Origin: Eledone cirrhosa
Taxonomy: Eukaryota
Assembly (NCBI GenBank): GCA_964016885.1
Contig: OZ024755.1
Span: 42,532,001-42,596,000 of the forward strand
DNA length: 64,000 nucleotides
Reading direction: 5' to 3'
Part shown: piece after piece, positions 4,290 through 57,874 of the stretch
How positions within the stretch are numbered: position 1 is the first letter of the stretch
Layout of the letters: each line of letters begins with the position of its first letter
Translations under genes and position numbers: made by a program
Notes under the pieces: generated by a model
Seen by the model: the letters and a program-made list of their open reading frames with translations, nothing else
What the model was told of the DNA's origin: nothing
Databases searched by the model: none

Positions 4290-4498
4290 ATCGATCGACT
4301 TTCGTCCAATCGGACCAAGGAAACAATGTTTCCATCGGTCTTTCCAGTTGCAAATATTATCTATCGGTCGCAACTCCAGGTAGAAGGAGCAACCTGAAAT
4401 AAAGTGTCTTGCTCAAGGACATAACGCATTGCCCAGTCCAGGAATCGAACTCAACCTCTCGATTGTGAATTCAATTCTCTAACCAGTCAGCCACACAC
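4290..4498 (-). mobile_element. tRNA-derived SINE
   Basis: Minus strand has an A box (TGGCTGACTGG), a B box (GAGTTCGATTCC) and body TGTCCTTGAGCAAGACACTTTATTTC; related copies at ~20495-20715 and ~29025-29210. Confidence 0.7.
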
Positions 4499-4522
4499 CA
4501 TCACTATATATATATATTATAT

Positions 4523-4700
4523 ATAATATAAAATCAAAAGATGGTTAAAAGAGTTCCATGTATTTTAATAAAATACATGGAACTCTTTTAACCATCTTTT
4601 GATTTTATATTATTTATACTCCAGTTCTATGAACTGTTGAGTGCTACTTATCCGATATTTGCATTGCTTTATTGTGCTACAATAAAACTCACCTCCTACA
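4523..4700. mobile_element. Solo Penelope-like terminal (pLTR) fragment with perfect 45-bp fold-back
   Basis: Perfect inverted repeat 4523-4567/4569-4613; right arm matches the PLE 3' end 12819-12862, and its distal part (~4632-4700) matches the reverse complement of 10831-10899. Confidence 0.8.
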
Positions 4701-6284
<1,584 letters not shown>

Positions 6285-6421
6285 TATATATATATGGTTC
6301 GTTAGAATTATTGAGCGCTTGCCACACATCTCGGAAGTTGTTTTTCGCTAATTTCCAAAAGCCGAAATACGATTCTCGCTAATTTATATTTGTATATTTA
6401 TATATATATATATATATATAT

Positions 6422-8197
6422 TATGAGAGACTGATGAATGTGGAGAACGAATGGGAGAGAGAGAAATTACCCTTGGTGGATCCGACAGAGGGACCAGCTA
6501 TTGAGATTGACGAATATAGGGTCCAAGAGGCGATTAGGGAAATGAAAAATGGTAAGGCTGCCAGACCATCGGGAATAGTTGCTGAGATGCTGAAGGCATC
6601 AGGGGATGTAGGCACTAAACTGGTTGCACGCATCATCAATCAGGCTATATATGGTGGTGTCATACCCAAAGACTGGTGCAGCAGTATTCTCATAAATTGC
6701 TACAAAGGTAAAGGGGATGCTTTGGAGAGGAGCAATTATAGGGGTATAAAACTGATAGATCAGGTTATGAAAGTGGCAGAAAGGATTTTAGCACAACTAA
6801 TTAGAGAAAGGGTCAAACTAGATGAGATGCAGTTTGGTTTTGTGCCTGGGAAGAGTACAACAGATGCCCTCTTCTTGGTGAGACAATTGCAAGAGAGGTT
6901 CTTAGAGAAGAATAAGCCACTATACTTAGCCTTTGTTGACCTAGAGAAGGCCTTTGATAGGGTACCCCGATCTGTCATCTGGTGGTCCCTAAGGAAGCTA
7001 GGTGTTGAAGAATGGCTTGTGAGGACAGTGCAAACTTTGTACAGAGGTACTCTCAGTAAAGTCAGGGTAGAAATGGAGTTTAGTGAGGAATTCCAGATAC
7101 AAGTAGGGGTACATCAGGGTTCGGTCCTCAGCCCGCTCTTGTTCATTATAGTCCTCCAAGCCATAACAGAGGAGTTTAAGACTAGCTGTCCATGGGAACT
7201 TCTCTACGCTGACGATCTGGTTCTTATAGCAGAATCAGTAGAGGAGCTAGAGAATAAATTTCGGCTATGGAAACAGCAGTTGGAAGCAAGAGGACTGAGA
7301 GTGAATCTAGCTAAGACAAAAGTGTTGATGAGTAGAAAAGAGGACAAAACCCTGATTCCGTCAGGGAAATGGCCATGTTCGATATGCAGAAAAGGAACTG
7401 GCATAAATTCTATAAAATGCACACAATGCAGATCCTGGGTACACAAGAGATGTAGCGGGATAGCAGGCAAACTAACAGGTAGGGAGAAATATGTATGCAG
7501 TAGATGTACAGGGAAATTAGACAGTAGAAGTCGCACTGATAGACACATTTTTCAAATGCAAGAGGGCGCTATAGAAGTGATGGATAGCTTCTGGTACCTA
7601 GGAGATCAGATTAGCATGGGAGGAGGGTGTTCCGAGGCCATAATATCTAGAATAAGGACGGGTTGGATGAAGTTTAGGGAGCTGCTTCCTCTGTTGACGA
7701 AGAAGGGTTTCTCCCTGCGTACGAAAGGCCGGTTGTATGATGCCTGTGTGAGGAGCGCGATGCTGCATGGTAGTGAGACATGGGCAGCAACTGCAGAGGA
7801 TATGCGACGGCTGGAGAGAAATGAGGCAAGCATGCTCCATTGGATGTACAGTGTAAATGTGCGTGAACAACCCAGCATAAATGTGTTGAGAGAGAAACTG
7901 TGTCTGAGAGGGATAGAATGTAGTGTACGGGAGAGGAGACTGAGGTGGTTTGGACATGTGATGCGCATGGAGGATGACCGATGGGTGAAGAAGTGCCAGG
8001 AATTGCCAGTTGAAGGAAGACGTGGTAGAGGTAGACCAAGAAAAACATGGGCGGAGGTGGTGAGAACAGACCTCAGATCATTGAAGCTCACGGTGGAGAT
8101 GACGAGGGACCGTGACGAGTGCAGAGATGCTGTGCTGAATAAGACCCGTCCCACCCTTGCAAGCAGGGAAAAGCGGACGTAAAATGATGATGATGAT
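6422..8197 (+). mobile_element. RTE-clade LINE family A, 5'-truncated, inserted in (TA)n
   Basis: Open RT frame; ends CGGACGTAAAA(TGA)n; (TA)n on both sides. Confidence 0.93.
6434..8182 (+). CDS. LINE ORF2 fragment: reverse transcriptase, PHD-like finger and RTE C-terminal domain (no APE endonuclease, 5'-truncated)
   Basis: Motifs [42 protein letters not shown]; C4HC3 finger after the RT core. Confidence 0.9.
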
Positions 8198-10354: not shown

Positions 10355-10899
10355 AAATAAATAAATAGCTTAGAGTTTAGACTCAGAGAGGTCATTTACA
10401 ATCATTTCAGCTCTAGGAATCGCTTCTGAGCAGTATAAATTAATATTTGATGAACATTTACATGTTATAGTTGCAATTGACTAATAAGATCGCTAGAGTG
10501 AAAAATCTTAATTCAACAACATAAGGTCTGCCTGTACGATCTAAAAAATAATAAATCAATACTCACAGACTCATATGGGCAAAAAGCCTTGGTACCTAGA
10601 CACGTTTAAAATTCAAAATACAAACTTTTTCTGCAGATCGGTCAGAACTTCAAACATGTTTCACAAAGGATGGTATAATAGTAAAATAATTAACTAATTA
10701 GCAGTGAGTTAATCAACTTTTTCTGTGTTTATCAATAGGCACCCAGATAAAAATAAAATAACTCAACCTCAGAAAAATATCTAAGGTCTGGTTAGCGTAG
10801 CGAAAATACATATATATACATATATATATATGTAGGAGGTGAGTTTTATTGTAGTACAATAAAGCAATGCAGATATCGGATAAGAAGCACTCTACAGTT

Positions 10900-11763
10900 T
10901 GGTATAATGCTCCTTTCTCCATCTCTATTAATAACAATATTCCTAAATTATTTTTTAGTGCCTTAAATAAATGCTTCCCTCCCTCACATATCTATAGTAA
11001 AATATTTAACAAACACACCATCAAATTTTCGTATTCTACATCCTCCAATATTTCCAACATCATCTCTAAACACAACAACAAAATATTAAATACTAAATCT
11101 CTTCCTTCCAATATTGAATTTCATAATAACAGTAGTAGTACTCCCGACGTCATTGTAAACCCTAGGCTAACTTCTGTAAACCCAAATACAACGTCAAACA
11201 CAACTTCGCTAAATGTTCATAATCCAACTCTAAATCAAGAAACTATTATTCCTATTATTCCTATCGCAAACAACTTCTCCAATCCAATTCCTTCTATAGA
11301 TAACACTAGATCACTCATTAATAATCTCTCTAATTGCAACTGCCGCATTAAAAATAAATGTCCTCTCAACAACCATTGCCTCGATAAAAACTTAATTTAT
11401 GAATGTAAAATTATAACTAGCACCAATTCCTTCACCTATTTTGGCTCCACTTCCACCTCTTTTAAAGCTCGTCTCTATAATCATCATTCATCTTTCAAAT
11501 ACAAACTTAAAAGAACTAACACTGCTCTCTCAGAACTCATATGGTCCTTAAAAGACAAAAACATTAAATATAACATCTTTTGGAAAAAGATTTCTTCTGC
11601 ATCCTCATACTTGAACAGCTCTCTATCTAAAATCTGTAATCTCTGCCTAAATGAAAACTTTACCATTATCTCTAACCTAGATTCTATAATAAATAGACGC
11701 TCAGATTTGTTTTCTATCTGCCTGCATAAATTCCATAGAACTTTTCACAAAGTATACAGTTAA
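10900..11763 (+). CDS. PLE ORF C-terminal fragment: linker, Zn-binding CxC..C..C motif and GIY-YIG endonuclease
   Basis: WYNAPFS..KIFNKHTIKFSYS; CNCRIKNKCPLNNHC; LIY..YFGST..FKARLYNH; TALSELIW; CNLCLNE; IINRRSDL..CLH. Pattern typical of PLE (Neptune-like) GIY-YIG domains. Confidence 0.85.
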   Translation, partial: WYNAPFSISINNNIPKLFFSALNKCFPPSHIYSKIFNKHTIKFSYSTSSNISNIISKHNNKILNTKSLPSNIEFHNNSSSTPDVIVNPRLTSVNPNTTSNTTSLNVHNPTLNQETIIPIIPIANNFSNPIPSIDNTRSLINNLSNCNCRIKNKCPLNNHCLDKNLIYECKIITSTNSFTYFGSTSTSFKARLYNHHSSFKYKLKRTNTALSELIWSLKDKNIKYNIFWKKISSASSYLNSSLSKICNLCLNENFTIISNLDSIINRRSDLFSICLHKFHRTFHKVYS

Positions 11764-12755
11764 TATTCAATTCTTTATCAATTTAGAATCTTTTCTCAAA
11801 GGCACATATACATACACCTCTTTAAAATATACCCATCTACCTTACTTTAAAGGGCATTATACACTCTATAATACTCGTTTACTCATTACCCTCATTCTAT
11901 CTTCTCGTAAAATAATAACATTTGTTTTTGACATTTTGAATATTCATCCGCAATCATTATTATTTTTTCTCTCTATCATAAATCTTTTTAATCTCAATTT
12001 CATCCTTAATTTATTATTATTTTTTTTTCTCCCCATCAACGAACTCATTATTAATACATATCAATTCAATATACAAACTTTAACTTCACATTATTTTTCT
12101 CAAATCCTTCTACACACAAACCTTAACAATTTTTCTCTTCGTTAATTTTGAAATTGCCACAATACATACATTTCTTCTTTTGACGTTAGAATATTCACCC
12201 ACAATTATTATTTTTTTCTCTCTATCTTCATACATAATTTCCCTTCGTTAATTTTCAAATTCCTTTAATTTATACATTATCTTCCAACGGTTCCCAACCT
12301 CTCTATATTAAAACAATATATCTTTTTCTCAGTTATAAAAACTATCTCTTTCTCTCTATCACCCATCTCTCCCTCTCCACCTTCACTCTCATCTCCTCCC
12401 CCCTTTTTTTCATCCTTTCCACCCCACCCCACCCCCCTCCTTAAATAAAATATTTTTTCCTCGCACATATCCTCCCTTCGTTAATTTTCAAATTTTTAAT
12501 TTATACAGTATCTTCCAACGGTTTTCAACCCCTCTATGTAAAAAATATATCTCCTCTCAGTTATAAAAACTATCTCTTTCTCTCTATCACCCATCTCTCC
12601 CTCTCATCTCCTTCCCTTTTCATCATTTCCCCCCCCCCCCTCTCTAAATAAAATATTTTTCCCAATATCACACATCAATCTAAAACCACTTTTCATATGT
12701 TGATTTAAAACTGCACTATCAACAAGTGTTTTTTAGCCTTCATATCATGTTCTCC

Positions 12756-12826
12756 TGTTTTATCTGATGAAAACACAAATATTATTGCTTGATGATGTTT
12801 GTTTTTGAAATGCGCATAATAAAATA
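12756..12826 (+). ncRNA. Type I hammerhead ribozyme (PLE-associated, palindromic stem III)
   Basis: Stem I TGTTTTAT/ATAAAATA; core CTGATGA 12764-12770; ~16-bp stem II with one mismatch and G-U pairs; GAAA 12807-12810; stem III TGCGCA; AUA triplet, predicted cut after 12818. Confidence 0.8.
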
Positions 12827-12862
12827 TATGGAACTCCTTTAACCATCTTTTGATCTTATATT

Positions 12863-13141
12863 ACATATATATATATATACATATATGTATATATATATAT
12901 ACATATATATATATGTATATATATATATATACATATATATATATGTATATATATATATATACATATATATATATGTATATATATATATATACATATATAT
13001 ATATGTATATATATATATACATATATATATATGTATATATATATATATACATATATATGTATATATATATATATATACATATATATGTATATATATATAT
13101 ATATATACATATATATGTATATATATATACATATATATGTA

Positions 13142-14154: not shown

Positions 14155-16188
14155 TCATCATCATCATCATCAACGTTTAACGTCCGTGTTCCACGCTTGC
14201 ATGGGTTTGGACGGGGGTAGTCCCACTTGAGGCAAGAGTGATTGTCTTGCTCGCATAGGACTGTCTGGCAGGTTTTCTACAGTTGGATGCCCTTCCTAAC
14301 ACCAACCACATTTACAGTGTGGGTCTGGGAGGTTTTTACCGTGTTGCCTACACGGCCACATTACAGCGTGGACTGTGTGTTTTTTTGTCGTGACACCTAC
14401 ACGATCTCATTTGTTTCGGCCTGGATGGCGCGGCACCAACATAACTTTACATAGAACGGGGGTGGTGTGGATGGGGTGGGGGTGGTGGCGGGACGGGATG
14501 TATATTGTTAGAGATGCCTACTGGCAAGGCGGGTCTTCTCTGTTACTGAGTACCGCCAAAGGTCTCGGTCCAGTGACATTGTCTTGGAGAGGTGTAAGTG
14601 TGTGAGGTCGGAGTTTATCAGCTCATCCCATGTTTTTCTAGGTCTGCCTATTCCGTGGCTACCGTCTATCTTTATTGCCCTGCACTTTGTAATACAGCTA
14701 TCGACTTTCATGCGCATCACGTGTCCATACCAACGCAGCCTTCTCTCGAGTAAACAACATCTGATCCCTCTTATCTCTAATTTTTTCCTTAGTTCGTTTA
14801 TGCTTTGCCGTTCACGTATATTACTGTTACACATCCAGCGGAGCATGCAAGCTTCGTTCCTCTCTAGTCTGCGTATATCCTCTGCACACAATGCCCAGGT
14901 CTCACTACCATGCAACATTGCTGTTCGTATGCAGGCATCGTACAACCTGCCTTTCATTTTTAGGGAGAACCCTTTAGCAGCTAATAGTGGTATAAGCTCT
15001 CTGAACTTTTTCCAACCAGTTCTGACTCTAGCTACAGTACTTTCAGAGCACCCTCCCCCACTGCTGATTTTATCGCCCAGGTAACGGAAGCTGTCCACTA
15101 TTTCTATAGAACCCTCTGCACAATTGAAAGAGCTAGTATTTTGTGGGCACTTGCTGCTACTTATTGCACCAGAACACCGGCCACATGTAAAGTCTATGTT
15201 CTTAGTTAGCTTACCTGTGATCCCACTACATCTTTTATGCACCCATACTTTGCATTTAGGACATAAGATGGAGTTTCTACCTACGCCTTTCCTACATACC
15301 GAGCACGACCATTTCCCAGAAGGGACCGCCGCCTTGTTTTCTTTCCTACAAACTAGAACTTTGGTCTTAGCCAGGTTAATTTTAAGTCCTTTTGACTCTA
15401 GGCCGTGCTTCCATGTTTGGAATTTCTTCTCTAGCTCGGCCATTGATTCCGCTATGAGTGTCAGGTCGTCTGCGTATAGGAGTTCCCATGGGCAGCCTGT
15501 CTTGAACTCCTCTGTTATAGCCTGAAGGGCAATAATAAATAGTAGGGGGCTGAGAACAGAGCCCTGATGGACGCCAACTTTTACGCTAAACTCTTCACTA
15601 TATTCGTTGTTAATTCTAACCTTGCTGACTGTTTCTTTATACATGGCTTGTATAGCCCTCACAAGCCATTCGTCAACGCCTAGTTTTCTAAGAGCCCACC
15701 AGATAATGGAGCGGGGGACTCTGTCGAAGGCTTTCTCCAGGTCGACAAAAGCTAAGTAGAGGGGTTTACCTTTAGCTAGGTACTTCTCCTGTAGTTGTCG
15801 TACTATGAAAAGAGCGTCTGTGGTGCTTTTGCCTGACACAAACCCGAACTGCATTTCATCTAGGTCAATTCTCTCTCTGATTAGTTGCGCTATTACTTTT
15901 TCCGTGACCTTCATGACCTGGTCGATTAATTTAATGCCTCTATAGTTACTCCTATCTAGGGCGTCTCCTTTACCCTTATAACAGTTAACGATGATGCTGC
16001 TATGCCAGTCCTTCGGAACAACCCCATTCTGTACGACTTGGTTAACTATGCGGGTGACCATGGTGTGTCCCACCGTGCCAGATGCCTTCAGCATCTCAGC
16101 AACTATTTCCGAAGGCCCAGCCGCCTTACTCGTCTTCATATCCTTGATTGCCTTACTTATTATACTCCCCTCGACTAACACTGCTGAT
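14155..16188 (-). mobile_element. RTE-clade LINE family B, 5'-truncated, with ~350-bp 3' UTR
   Basis: Open RT frame; (GAT)n tail; flanked by (TA)n. Confidence 0.93.
14508..16187 (-). CDS. LINE ORF2 fragment: RT, PHD-like finger and C-terminal domain
   Basis: [33 protein letters not shown]; the N-terminal YI run of ORF 14508-16814 is microsatellite read-through. Confidence 0.9.
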
Positions 16189-16189
16189 G

Positions 16190-16225
<36 letters not shown>

Positions 16226-30010: not shown

Positions 30011-30150
30011 CCAGAGTACTCAATACTTTGGGTAGTAGAGTCAGAACCGCGACGGCAGAGCTCTAGCCGTTTCGACGGCTATTTCTCGACTCCAGAAATA
30101 GCCGTCGAAACGGCTAGAGCTCTGCCGTCGGGGTCCTAAACCTCTTCCTA
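30011..30150. mobile_element. Fold-back copy of the GTCGAAACGGC family
   Basis: Inverted arms ~30050-30088/30095-30133 (CGACGGCAGAGCTCTAGCCGTTTCGACGGCTATTTCT and its complement). Confidence 0.75.
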
Positions 30151-56419: not shown

Positions 56420-57685
56420 TCACCCACTACCTGATATTGAAGGATCTGTTTGAGTTTCTGAGTGATCTGATACAGTTGAATCCTTAGTACAAGTATTCAG
56501 GTACAGATTGCTTTTCTGGTGGATTTTCATATGTTTTGATAAATGTCCTGATTGTACAAAAGATTTCTCGCACACTGAACATGAGAATGGTTTTTCTCCT
56601 GTGTGTGTTCTTAGATGTTTTGTTAAGTGTCCTGACTGCACAAATTTCTTGTCACAAAGTGTACATACATAGGGTTTTTCCCCAGTGTGTGTCTTCAAGT
56701 GTTCACTTAAGTTCCCTGCATGAGAAAATGTTTTTTCACAATGATTGCACTCATAAATCCGTTCACCTGAATGCACACGTAAATGTCTCTTTAAAGAATC
56801 AGAACGTGGAAAAGTACTTGAACAAAAGTTACAGGAAAAGGGCCGTTCTGCAGTATGGATTCTCAAGTGCACAGTTAGGTTATTTGACTGAGAAAATGCT
56901 TTTGAGCAGAATTTACAAATATAGGGCTTTTCTCCTTTATGAATCCTAAGATGTTTGGTAAGATGACCCGACTGAGAGAATTTCTTGTTGCAGTATTCAC
57001 ATTCAAACGGTTTTTCTCCTGTATGTGTCTTAATATGTTCTGTAAGATTACCAGAGTGTGAAAAAGATTTGGGACACATCGTACAAGAGAAGCATTTTTC
57101 ACCAGTATGTGTTCTGACGTGGGTTGCTAAGTTGTCAGATCGAGAAAAGGCAAGTCCACAGCAAGGACACTCGTAAGGCTTTTCCGCAGTGTGTGTACGC
57201 ATATGTGCAGTGAGGTTATTAGACTGGGAGAACCGCTTTTGACAGAAACTACATTGATAAGGTTTCTCACCAGTATGAATTCGAAGATGTTTTGTTAAGT
57301 GACCTGACTGAGAAAATTTCTTGGAACAAAAATGGCAATTGTATGGCTTGGGCTGATCAATTTGTTTAGAATGAACTGTCTTTGAATTAGCTGAAGGTGG
57401 TAGGGATGGGTCTTGTAATGATGGTAGTGCTCCAGTATGGACTGACTGTGATGTAACTGATATCATTAAACTTCCACTATTATCCAATGACTGTGGTGAT
57501 ATCAAAGGATGTGATACTGGTGGGATGTAAGCAGACACAGCACAAGCAGTTTCAGTATATGAAATACCATAGAATTTACAAGGATCATTTCTGTTCTGAG
57601 TGGGGATCATATCCTGACTAAAGGGTCTGCTGAAACTCTTTGGTTGCAGTGAAGAATCAGCAATATTTTGGCTGATCGAATCCAT
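56420..57685 (-). CDS. C2H2 (Kruppel-type) zinc-finger protein, 421 aa, 10 tandem fingers, single coding exon
   Basis: Ten CxxC-x12-HxxxH fingers with TGEKP-type linkers; in-frame stop just upstream of the ATG; splice acceptor TCTTCTCTTTATTTCAG with exon starting at 57763. Confidence 0.93.
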   Translation of the reverse strand: MDSISQNIADSSLQPKSFSRPFSQDMIPTQNRNDPCKFYGISYTETACAVSAYIPPVSHPLISPQSLDNSGSLMISVTSQSVHTGALPSLQDPSLPPSANSKTVHSKQIDQPKPYNCHFCSKKFSQSGHLTKHLRIHTGEKPYQCSFCQKRFSQSNNLTAHMRTHTAEKPYECPCCGLAFSRSDNLATHVRTHTGEKCFSCTMCPKSFSHSGNLTEHIKTHTGEKPFECEYCNKKFSQSGHLTKHLRIHKGEKPYICKFCSKAFSQSNNLTVHLRIHTAERPFSCNFCSSTFPRSDSLKRHLRVHSGERIYECNHCEKTFSHAGNLSEHLKTHTGEKPYVCTLCDKKFVQSGHLTKHLRTHTGEKPFSCSVCEKSFVQSGHLSKHMKIHQKSNLYLNTCTKDSTVSDHSETQTDPSISGSG

Positions 57686-57874
57686 AATGTTTTAAAGAGT
57701 AGGGGAAGGTAGTTAATGTAATATCCTTTACTTCCAAATACACAACACTTCTGCTTGAACTATCTGAAATAAAGAGAAGAGAATATATATATGTAGATAT
57801 CACACTTTCTGAATATATATATAACAGCTAGATATTTATATATATATATCATGATGATGATGATGATGATATAA

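Follow-up and report, generated by a model that had tools for sequence, protein, structure and literature searches.

A head-to-head insertion of a Hydra-type Penelope-like element in Eledone cirrhosa and a possible genomic trace of hammerhead self-cleavage

Introduction

Inverted, 5′-truncated pLTRs with palindromic junctions have already been described for Penelope-like elements (PLEs) (PMC8557442, PMC3846280), as have pairs of hammerheads lying on opposite strands 100–700 bp apart (PMC4209133). PMC8557442 calls the role of the hammerheads of PLEs unclear; according to PMC4209133, evidence for their cleavage in vivo had been lacking, and hammerheads with a short palindromic stem III need a dimer. 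For another PLE, PMC11167929 reports that synthesis initiates at two internal sites and that both strands of the target are extended, and it traces the tail at one side to these two sites.

Here we analyse a 64,000-nt stretch of the Eledone cirrhosa genome (contig OZ024755.1; hereafter the window), in which a short fold-back at 4523–4700 ends close to the predicted cut of a PLE hammerhead, and compare it with its relatives throughout the 3.0 Gb assembly.

Results

The fold-back is a perfect 45-bp inverted repeat with arms at 4523–4567 and 4569–4613 and an unpaired A at 4568, as an earlier note on this DNA had described; the same note's remark that neither a ribozyme core nor an ORF adjoins the palindrome was also confirmed. 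Only two complex perfect inverted repeats (arms of at least 14 bp, loops of at most 10 nt) occur in the window, 4523–4613 among them. The palindrome folds with a z value of −17.5, and none of 200 shuffled sequences was as stable. A second perfect fold-back, at 30050–30130 (37-bp arms, 7-nt loop), belongs to another family; it resembles the 3′ half of a further hammerhead in having a GAGCTC palindrome after GAAA, and (TA)n lies on its right.

Element coordinates are counted from the predicted hammerhead cut, so that +1 is the first base 3′ of it (12819 and 4568 of the window) and −1 is 12818. The sequence at 4568–4618 matches 12819–12869 by 90%, and 4632–4700 matches 10899–10831, in inverted orientation, by 94%. 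The insert thus consists of a short inverted arm (4523–4567, minus strand), which covers pLTR +2 to about +46 and ends in (TA)n at the short end of the family, and a long arm (4568–4700, plus strand), which covers +1 to +133 and finishes at the family long end. The two meet in a TA-A-TA junction (4566–4570) with 2-nt microhomology, where the long arm can be read from −2 and the short arm from +2 (locus L001: ends +2/−2, overlap 2). As the TA at 4566–4567 matches pLTR −2/−1 as well, the long arm starts anywhere from −2 to +1; the earlier proposal that it begins right after the AUA cut is therefore one of several permitted positions.

On the left the insert is flanked by a (TA)n target remnant (4505–4522) and on the right by a (TA)n-type microsatellite (4701–5100), read to 5100 and running on beyond. 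No target-site duplication was discernible in the flanking sequence inspected. In short-read contigs from four runs the 4523–4700 palindrome is neither bridged nor contradicted; these contigs do contain the usual continuation of the family into the hammerhead upstream of 4566. A search of sequencing runs listed no RNA run that holds the sequence. Taken alone, 4523–4700 is an ordinary insertion, one among thousands of short head-to-head PLE insertions.

Several other features of the window were recorded. Positions 4300–4505 belong to a short repeat that is very abundant (high contig depth) and represent its 3′ part; the fold-back inserted into the (TA)n tail of this repeat. Copies of 5′-truncated LINEs lie inside long (TA)n-derived tracts at 6383–8182 (plus strand) and about 14508–16200 (minus strand); in the first copy, the one searched against Pfam, RT and PHD-finger domains were found. 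A 423-aa open frame at 56420–57691 (minus strand) encodes a tandem C2H2 zinc-finger array and is probably an exon of a host gene.

The family was characterised from a full-length copy (L241) with a unit of 3,709 bp, in which an 808-aa stop-to-stop frame with YRDD lies between two pLTRs. By eye, SDKT, RRLRWI (with I in place of the K of RWK), CNCPVKNKC, CNLC and CLH could be recognised, and no CCHH. A Pfam search of the PLE proteins of the family gave no RT or GIY-YIG match, and the domains were assigned from motifs. With a single ORF (RT and C-terminal endonuclease) between pLTRs, this motif set and insertion into (TA)n, the element is classified as a Hydra-clade PLE, an assignment made by motifs and targets rather than by a tree. 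The full-length copy has an ATG at +219 and its sequence continues past +133, which places +133 inside the 5′ UTR and not at an RNA 3′ end.

A second insertion of this family lies elsewhere in the window; it comprises an inverted long arm (+65 to +133; 10831–10899, minus strand, located by sequence match), a 5′-truncated ORF remnant of Hydra type (10900–11763, plus strand) with the CxCX5C linker and C-terminal endonuclease region, for which L241 is the full-length relative, and a pLTR stretch from −124 to +51 followed by (TA)n (12695–12869, plus strand). Here −124 is the 5′ edge of the family and its probable transcription start, and +51 is the short end. The inverted arm does not overlap the 2-kb direct arm of its own insertion, which ends at +51. 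The 3′ UTR of this PLE (11900–12660) contains internal direct repeats of ~60 and 200–230 bp.

Within the second insertion lies a type I hammerhead motif (12756–12826, plus strand), for which the canonical cut position, predicted from the motif, is after 12818. It is made up of the 5′ strand of stem I, CTGATGA (12764–12770), a 15-pair stem II, GAAA (12807–12810), a palindromic stem III, ATA (12816–12818) and the 3′ strand of stem I, so the motif pointed out in the earlier note, with its predicted cut, is real at the level of core and stems. In an alignment of 14 copies (95% identical) the CUGANGA, GAAA and NUH core and stems I–III are present throughout: CTGA(T/C)GA, GAAA and ATA are kept, N being T or C, and 98.4% of the stem cells are paired. 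There are 11 further pair types, arising from one-sided changes, mostly to G-U, and no two-sided compensatory change was seen among these copies. The short palindromic stem III is of the type that PMC4209133 describes as dimer-requiring. Rfam scans gave no hammerhead family among the matches listed (the best 150 of 256, and 86 of 86), which consisted of hairpin and microsatellite look-alikes.

The two-arm anatomy of 4523–4700 is the usual one in the family. At 157 of 185 junction loci, a long arm with its end at +133 lies head to head with a short arm that stops near +46 to +51, both ending in (TA)n, so that the inverted pLTR piece has a tail at one end only; one locus is long-long, two are short-short, and 25 have one arm unclassified. 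The arms differ at 1.9% of sites within a locus and at 8.0% between loci (149 loci), which indicates that both arms of a locus come from one source. Of 165 loci compared, the short arm reaches further upstream than the long arm in 100 and less far in 31; in the other 34 the two are equal.

To map where the arms meet, we counted junctions over the assembly by pairs of exact, facing 15-nt anchors, one per arm, the distance between them being termed the gap. This gave 5,719 head-to-head junctions with gaps up to 330, longer ones lying outside the count: 370 with gaps of 0–60, 1,421 with 61–200 and 3,928 with 201–330. In the last class, 25 of 50 listed junctions have the length expected of a symmetric turn near −124, which was confirmed in eight of nine such loci whose centre was read. 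By extrapolation from the listed junctions, symmetric turns near −124 number roughly 2,000 and represent the main turning point. This position is the 5′ edge of the pLTR. A G stands in front of −124 in 9 of 29 junction ends (seven of them unexplained by the partner arm) and a C in read-through copies; for this count 62 rows were sorted by hand and 10 were reassigned to the read-through class. The additional G at the pLTR edge suggests a capped RNA start, and −124 is thus likely to be the RNA start of the element. The −124 fold-backs (e.g., L269–L275; −124 corresponds to window position 12695) often carry one more G or a short untemplated stretch; they look like MITEs, yet are PLE products.

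Among 50 listed junctions with gaps of 61–200, 16 of the 100 arm ends fall at −119 to −128, 16 at −10 to −17, which is the 3′ foot of stem II, and one at +1; a further cluster of five was noted at −96. A total of 18,530 arms continue past the cut as far as −6, and 294 forward-strand arms (indels included), ~3%, fail between +6 and −3. When copies of 4568–4700 are taken by their 5′ ends, as the earlier note had proposed, the outcome is divided. None of the 29 best other copies of 4568–4690 begins at +1, whereas 117 arms genome-wide, before sorting, end at +1 against 96 and 48 at the AT-matched control positions +6 and −3. Sorting by hand resolved 100 listed +1 rows into 30 arms of the perfect class, eight with point changes or indels, ~12 abutting (TA)n and ~43 other joins. 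The corresponding figures were ~14 with point changes or indels, ~40 abutting (TA)n and ~34 other joins for the 96 rows at +6, and ~17, ~6 and ~20 for the 48 rows at −3. On these rows the asymmetric excess at +1 is modest, about 1.5 to 2.5 times.

Junctions near the cut were classed for gaps of 21–33 (50 of 65), 34–40 (50 of 58) and 41–48 (50 of 89), 144 of them by script and six by eye. Over seven 2-nt centres, 17 of the 23 perfect fold-backs among the junctions listed turn at +1/+2 (one with a substitution), compared with three at −2/−1, two at +6, one at +7/+8 and none at +2/+3, −3/−2 or −5/−4. The excess has p ~1e−8 if all centres are equally prone, an equality that the data do not establish, as the 2-nt classes are overdispersed. 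With near variants, the +1/+2 class makes up about 0.5% of the counted junctions. Its 17 fold-backs have different flanks and several subfamily letters; segmental duplication as a cause of the peak was rejected on account of the differing flanks. Extended pairing found no support either, as the register pairs at 5 of 12 positions and a centre with 6 of 12 has no cases. Fold-back centres in general are spread along the pLTR and lie mostly at −124 (the earlier note had named a random spread as evidence against its reading), whereas the perfect symmetric ones pile up at the predicted cut.

Among the junctions listed, the 2-nt-microhomology classes +6/+10 and −14/+5 have eight and six members, with no cut at either, and the class of the 4523–4700 copy, with eight listed, is no commoner than the +6/+10 class, which needs none. 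The 8-nt stem III palindrome accounts for 14 clean cases of 50 listed, and A-run/T-run joins for 22 of 50 listed (gap 41–48). At one locus (L330; G000:C19:31149465-31149536) the hammerhead core has been removed with precise limits, at +1 and at the partner strand of stem I, as if the enzyme had crossed over between these two points, and in four listed rows (of which L331 was read) +1 is joined to G plus −124.

Discussion

The insert at 4523–4700 is a head-to-head insertion of a Hydra-type PLE. Our results make it rather probable that it was formed from two cDNAs that were primed separately and joined at their 3′ ends, and that a minor class of such insertions in the family derives from self-cleaved RNA. 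In the proposed course of events, the protein of the element would cut (TA)n, and both ends of the break would prime internally on the RNA, at +133 and at about +50. The two cDNAs would come from one source element and often from one RNA; both would be extended in the direction of the RNA 5′ end, and for symmetric products they would probably share one RNA molecule. Their ends would be set by the end of the RNA (mostly the capped start at −124), by stalling of the enzyme at the foot of stem II, or by short palindromes prone to pairing. Finally, their 3′ ends would pair over 2–8 nt and be joined, in the case of 4523–4700 by a 2-nt microhomology.

If the 3′ ends of two cDNAs pair in this way, symmetric products should mark RNA 5′ ends or palindromes, and the +1/+2 class would be best explained by an RNA starting at +1, that is, by cut RNA. 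The pile-up of fold-backs, together with the 117 ends at +1 against 96 and 48, suggests that such RNA may be the source of a small fraction of insertions; the core-excised copy L330 also speaks for a cut. Judged from these sequence counts, the minor +1/+2 class of the family likely records self-cleavage. For the 4523–4700 copy itself, an origin from cut RNA (a blunt join between arms with their ends at +1 and +2) is conceivable and somewhat doubtful, because its TA junction fits uncut RNA too. The earlier suggestion of genomic evidence for cleavage in vivo may accordingly hold in part for the family, through its symmetric pile-up and +1 excess; the copy on which it was founded is outside the clean class. 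Taken as a whole, head-to-head junctions may well constitute a genomic map of RNA 5′ ends, in which the hammerhead cut at +1 reaches about 1% of the level of the capped start at −124; we lean slightly towards this view, by which a metazoan PLE hammerhead would cleave in the germ line and the cut, uncapped RNA would be copied twice by the protein of the element and integrated. Against a cleavage class stands the single +1 end among the 100 listed arm ends of the asymmetric junctions with gaps of 61–200. PMC11167929, on the one reconstituted system, also reports that hammerhead mutants insert normally in vitro and that no RNA-seq reads end at the cut.

The competitor to be taken most seriously, though we hold it somewhat less probable than not, accepts the same type of insertion and sees in the +1 excess a stall or jump of the reverse transcriptase on uncut RNA, at the three-way junction that tops stem I, or a microhomology preference that was not modelled; no cleavage would then be recorded. 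A stronger stop does exist at the stem II foot (−10 to −17, with 16 of 100 ends, and the 22 of 50 listed junctions of gap 41–48), the overdispersion of the 2-nt classes suits such a preference, the core excised at L330 could reflect a jump from one AT dinucleotide to another with no cut, and metazoan PLE hammerheads had low activity in vitro according to PMC4209133. Stalling does not readily account for the sharpness of the peak, however, as neighbouring 2-nt centres have 0, 0, 3 and 1 cases against 17 among the junctions listed. Moreover, both arms ending on the same base with a 2-nt overlap is the pattern seen at −124, the likely RNA 5′ end. A stem is expected to stop the enzyme at its foot and not at its top, which also counts against a stall at this place. 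A different course, in which a single cDNA primed at +133 folds, copies itself to ~+50 and joins the other target end, appears improbable. At equal 2-nt microhomology, a near-symmetric class holds about four times as many junctions as a distant one (4.2 vs. 1.15), and the two arms have private variants in common, both of which self-copying would explain; for palindromic junctions, self-priming has been proposed in PMC3846280. Yet a self-copy cannot outreach its template, and the short arm extends further upstream than the long one in 100 of 165 loci; in the second insertion (10831–12869) the arms fail to overlap at all, so its inverted arm is no self-copy. Self-copying is thereby excluded as the general route.

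The earlier note had gone further and taken the insert for a ~133-nt cleavage product that was copied into DNA and integrated as a ribozyme-defined mini-retroelement. A junction no more than 2 nt from the predicted cut and the family-level excess at +1 speak for a discrete unit spreading in this way, which we nevertheless think very unlikely and do not maintain: +133 is internal to the transcript, within a 5′ UTR whose ATG lies at +219; none of the 29 best copies starts at +1 and 18,530 arms pass the cut; the centres lie mostly at −124; the insert has the ordinary long-plus-short anatomy of 157 of 185 loci; and the +1 copies vary in their flanks and in their subfamily letters, as is expected of one-off products. 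Classification as a retrozyme or other stand-alone mini-retroelement was likewise rejected, given the missing core, the lack of tandem arrangement, the internal 3′ end and the mixed subfamilies. Perfect palindromes in low-complexity DNA are a familiar read artefact, and the short-read contigs leave the 4523–4700 junction neither bridged nor contradicted. Still, a fold-back artefact of the assembly or of long reads, or a palindrome formed after insertion, is hardly credible where arms end at unequal, fixed biological points, flanks are not mirrored, and substitutions separate the arms at many loci.

Insertion by two separately primed cDNAs therefore remains our preferred reading, and the junction counts bear on the origin of PLE inverted repeats by pointing to two cDNAs and not to self-priming. 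The inverted type of PLE insertion is known already; what is worth following is the family-level excess at the cut. In a search of the main texts of mostly open-access literature, we found no published report of PLE junctions piling up at the hammerhead cut. Should the +1 excess record cleavage, the cut would happen in the germ line and be rare among templates, and exact predictions would follow: a cap at −124, a 5′-OH at +1, and priming at +133 and about +50.

The comparisons below refer to the parts of each report that were accessible. The family agrees with the Hydra clade of PMC8557442 in DKT, the RW motif, the CxCX5C linker, the C-terminal CxxC and CxH, the (TA)n targets and the pLTR hammerhead; it differs in its 3.7-kb unit, compared with generally under 3 kb there, and in having RWI in place of RWK. 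With the inverted insertions of EN+ PLEs (PMC8557442, PMC3846280) it shares the head-to-head inverted pLTR piece, a palindromic or microhomology junction, the extension at one end, (TA)n targets and partial tandems. The tail is about 82 nt here and 30–40 nt there; in addition, junctions were counted here by position and peak mainly at −124 and to a minor extent at the hammerhead cut, and the data favour two cDNAs over self-priming. PAc, the Poseidon element of Anolis studied in vitro (PMC11167929), resembles our family in its two internal initiation sites 3′ of the hammerhead, in the extension of both target strands and in uncut RNA as the main template. No RNA-seq reads at the cut are reported for it and inverted junctions are not analysed in those parts of the paper, whereas a small genomic excess at the cut is seen here.

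The non-LTR retrozymes (bioRxiv 10.64898/2026.07.22.740005) are likewise short, non-coding, pLTR-derived sequences tied to type I hammerheads. They are tandem repeats with a whole ribozyme per unit, in contrast to the inverted and coreless 4523–4700. R2 with its HDV-like 5′ ribozyme (PMC3774820) provides a precedent for a self-cleaving ribozyme that can set the 5′ end of an inserted copy. There the ribozyme end is the normal 5′ junction, whereas the corresponding end in the present family accounts for at most about 0.5% of junctions, is that of a hammerhead, and lies within the 5′ UTR.
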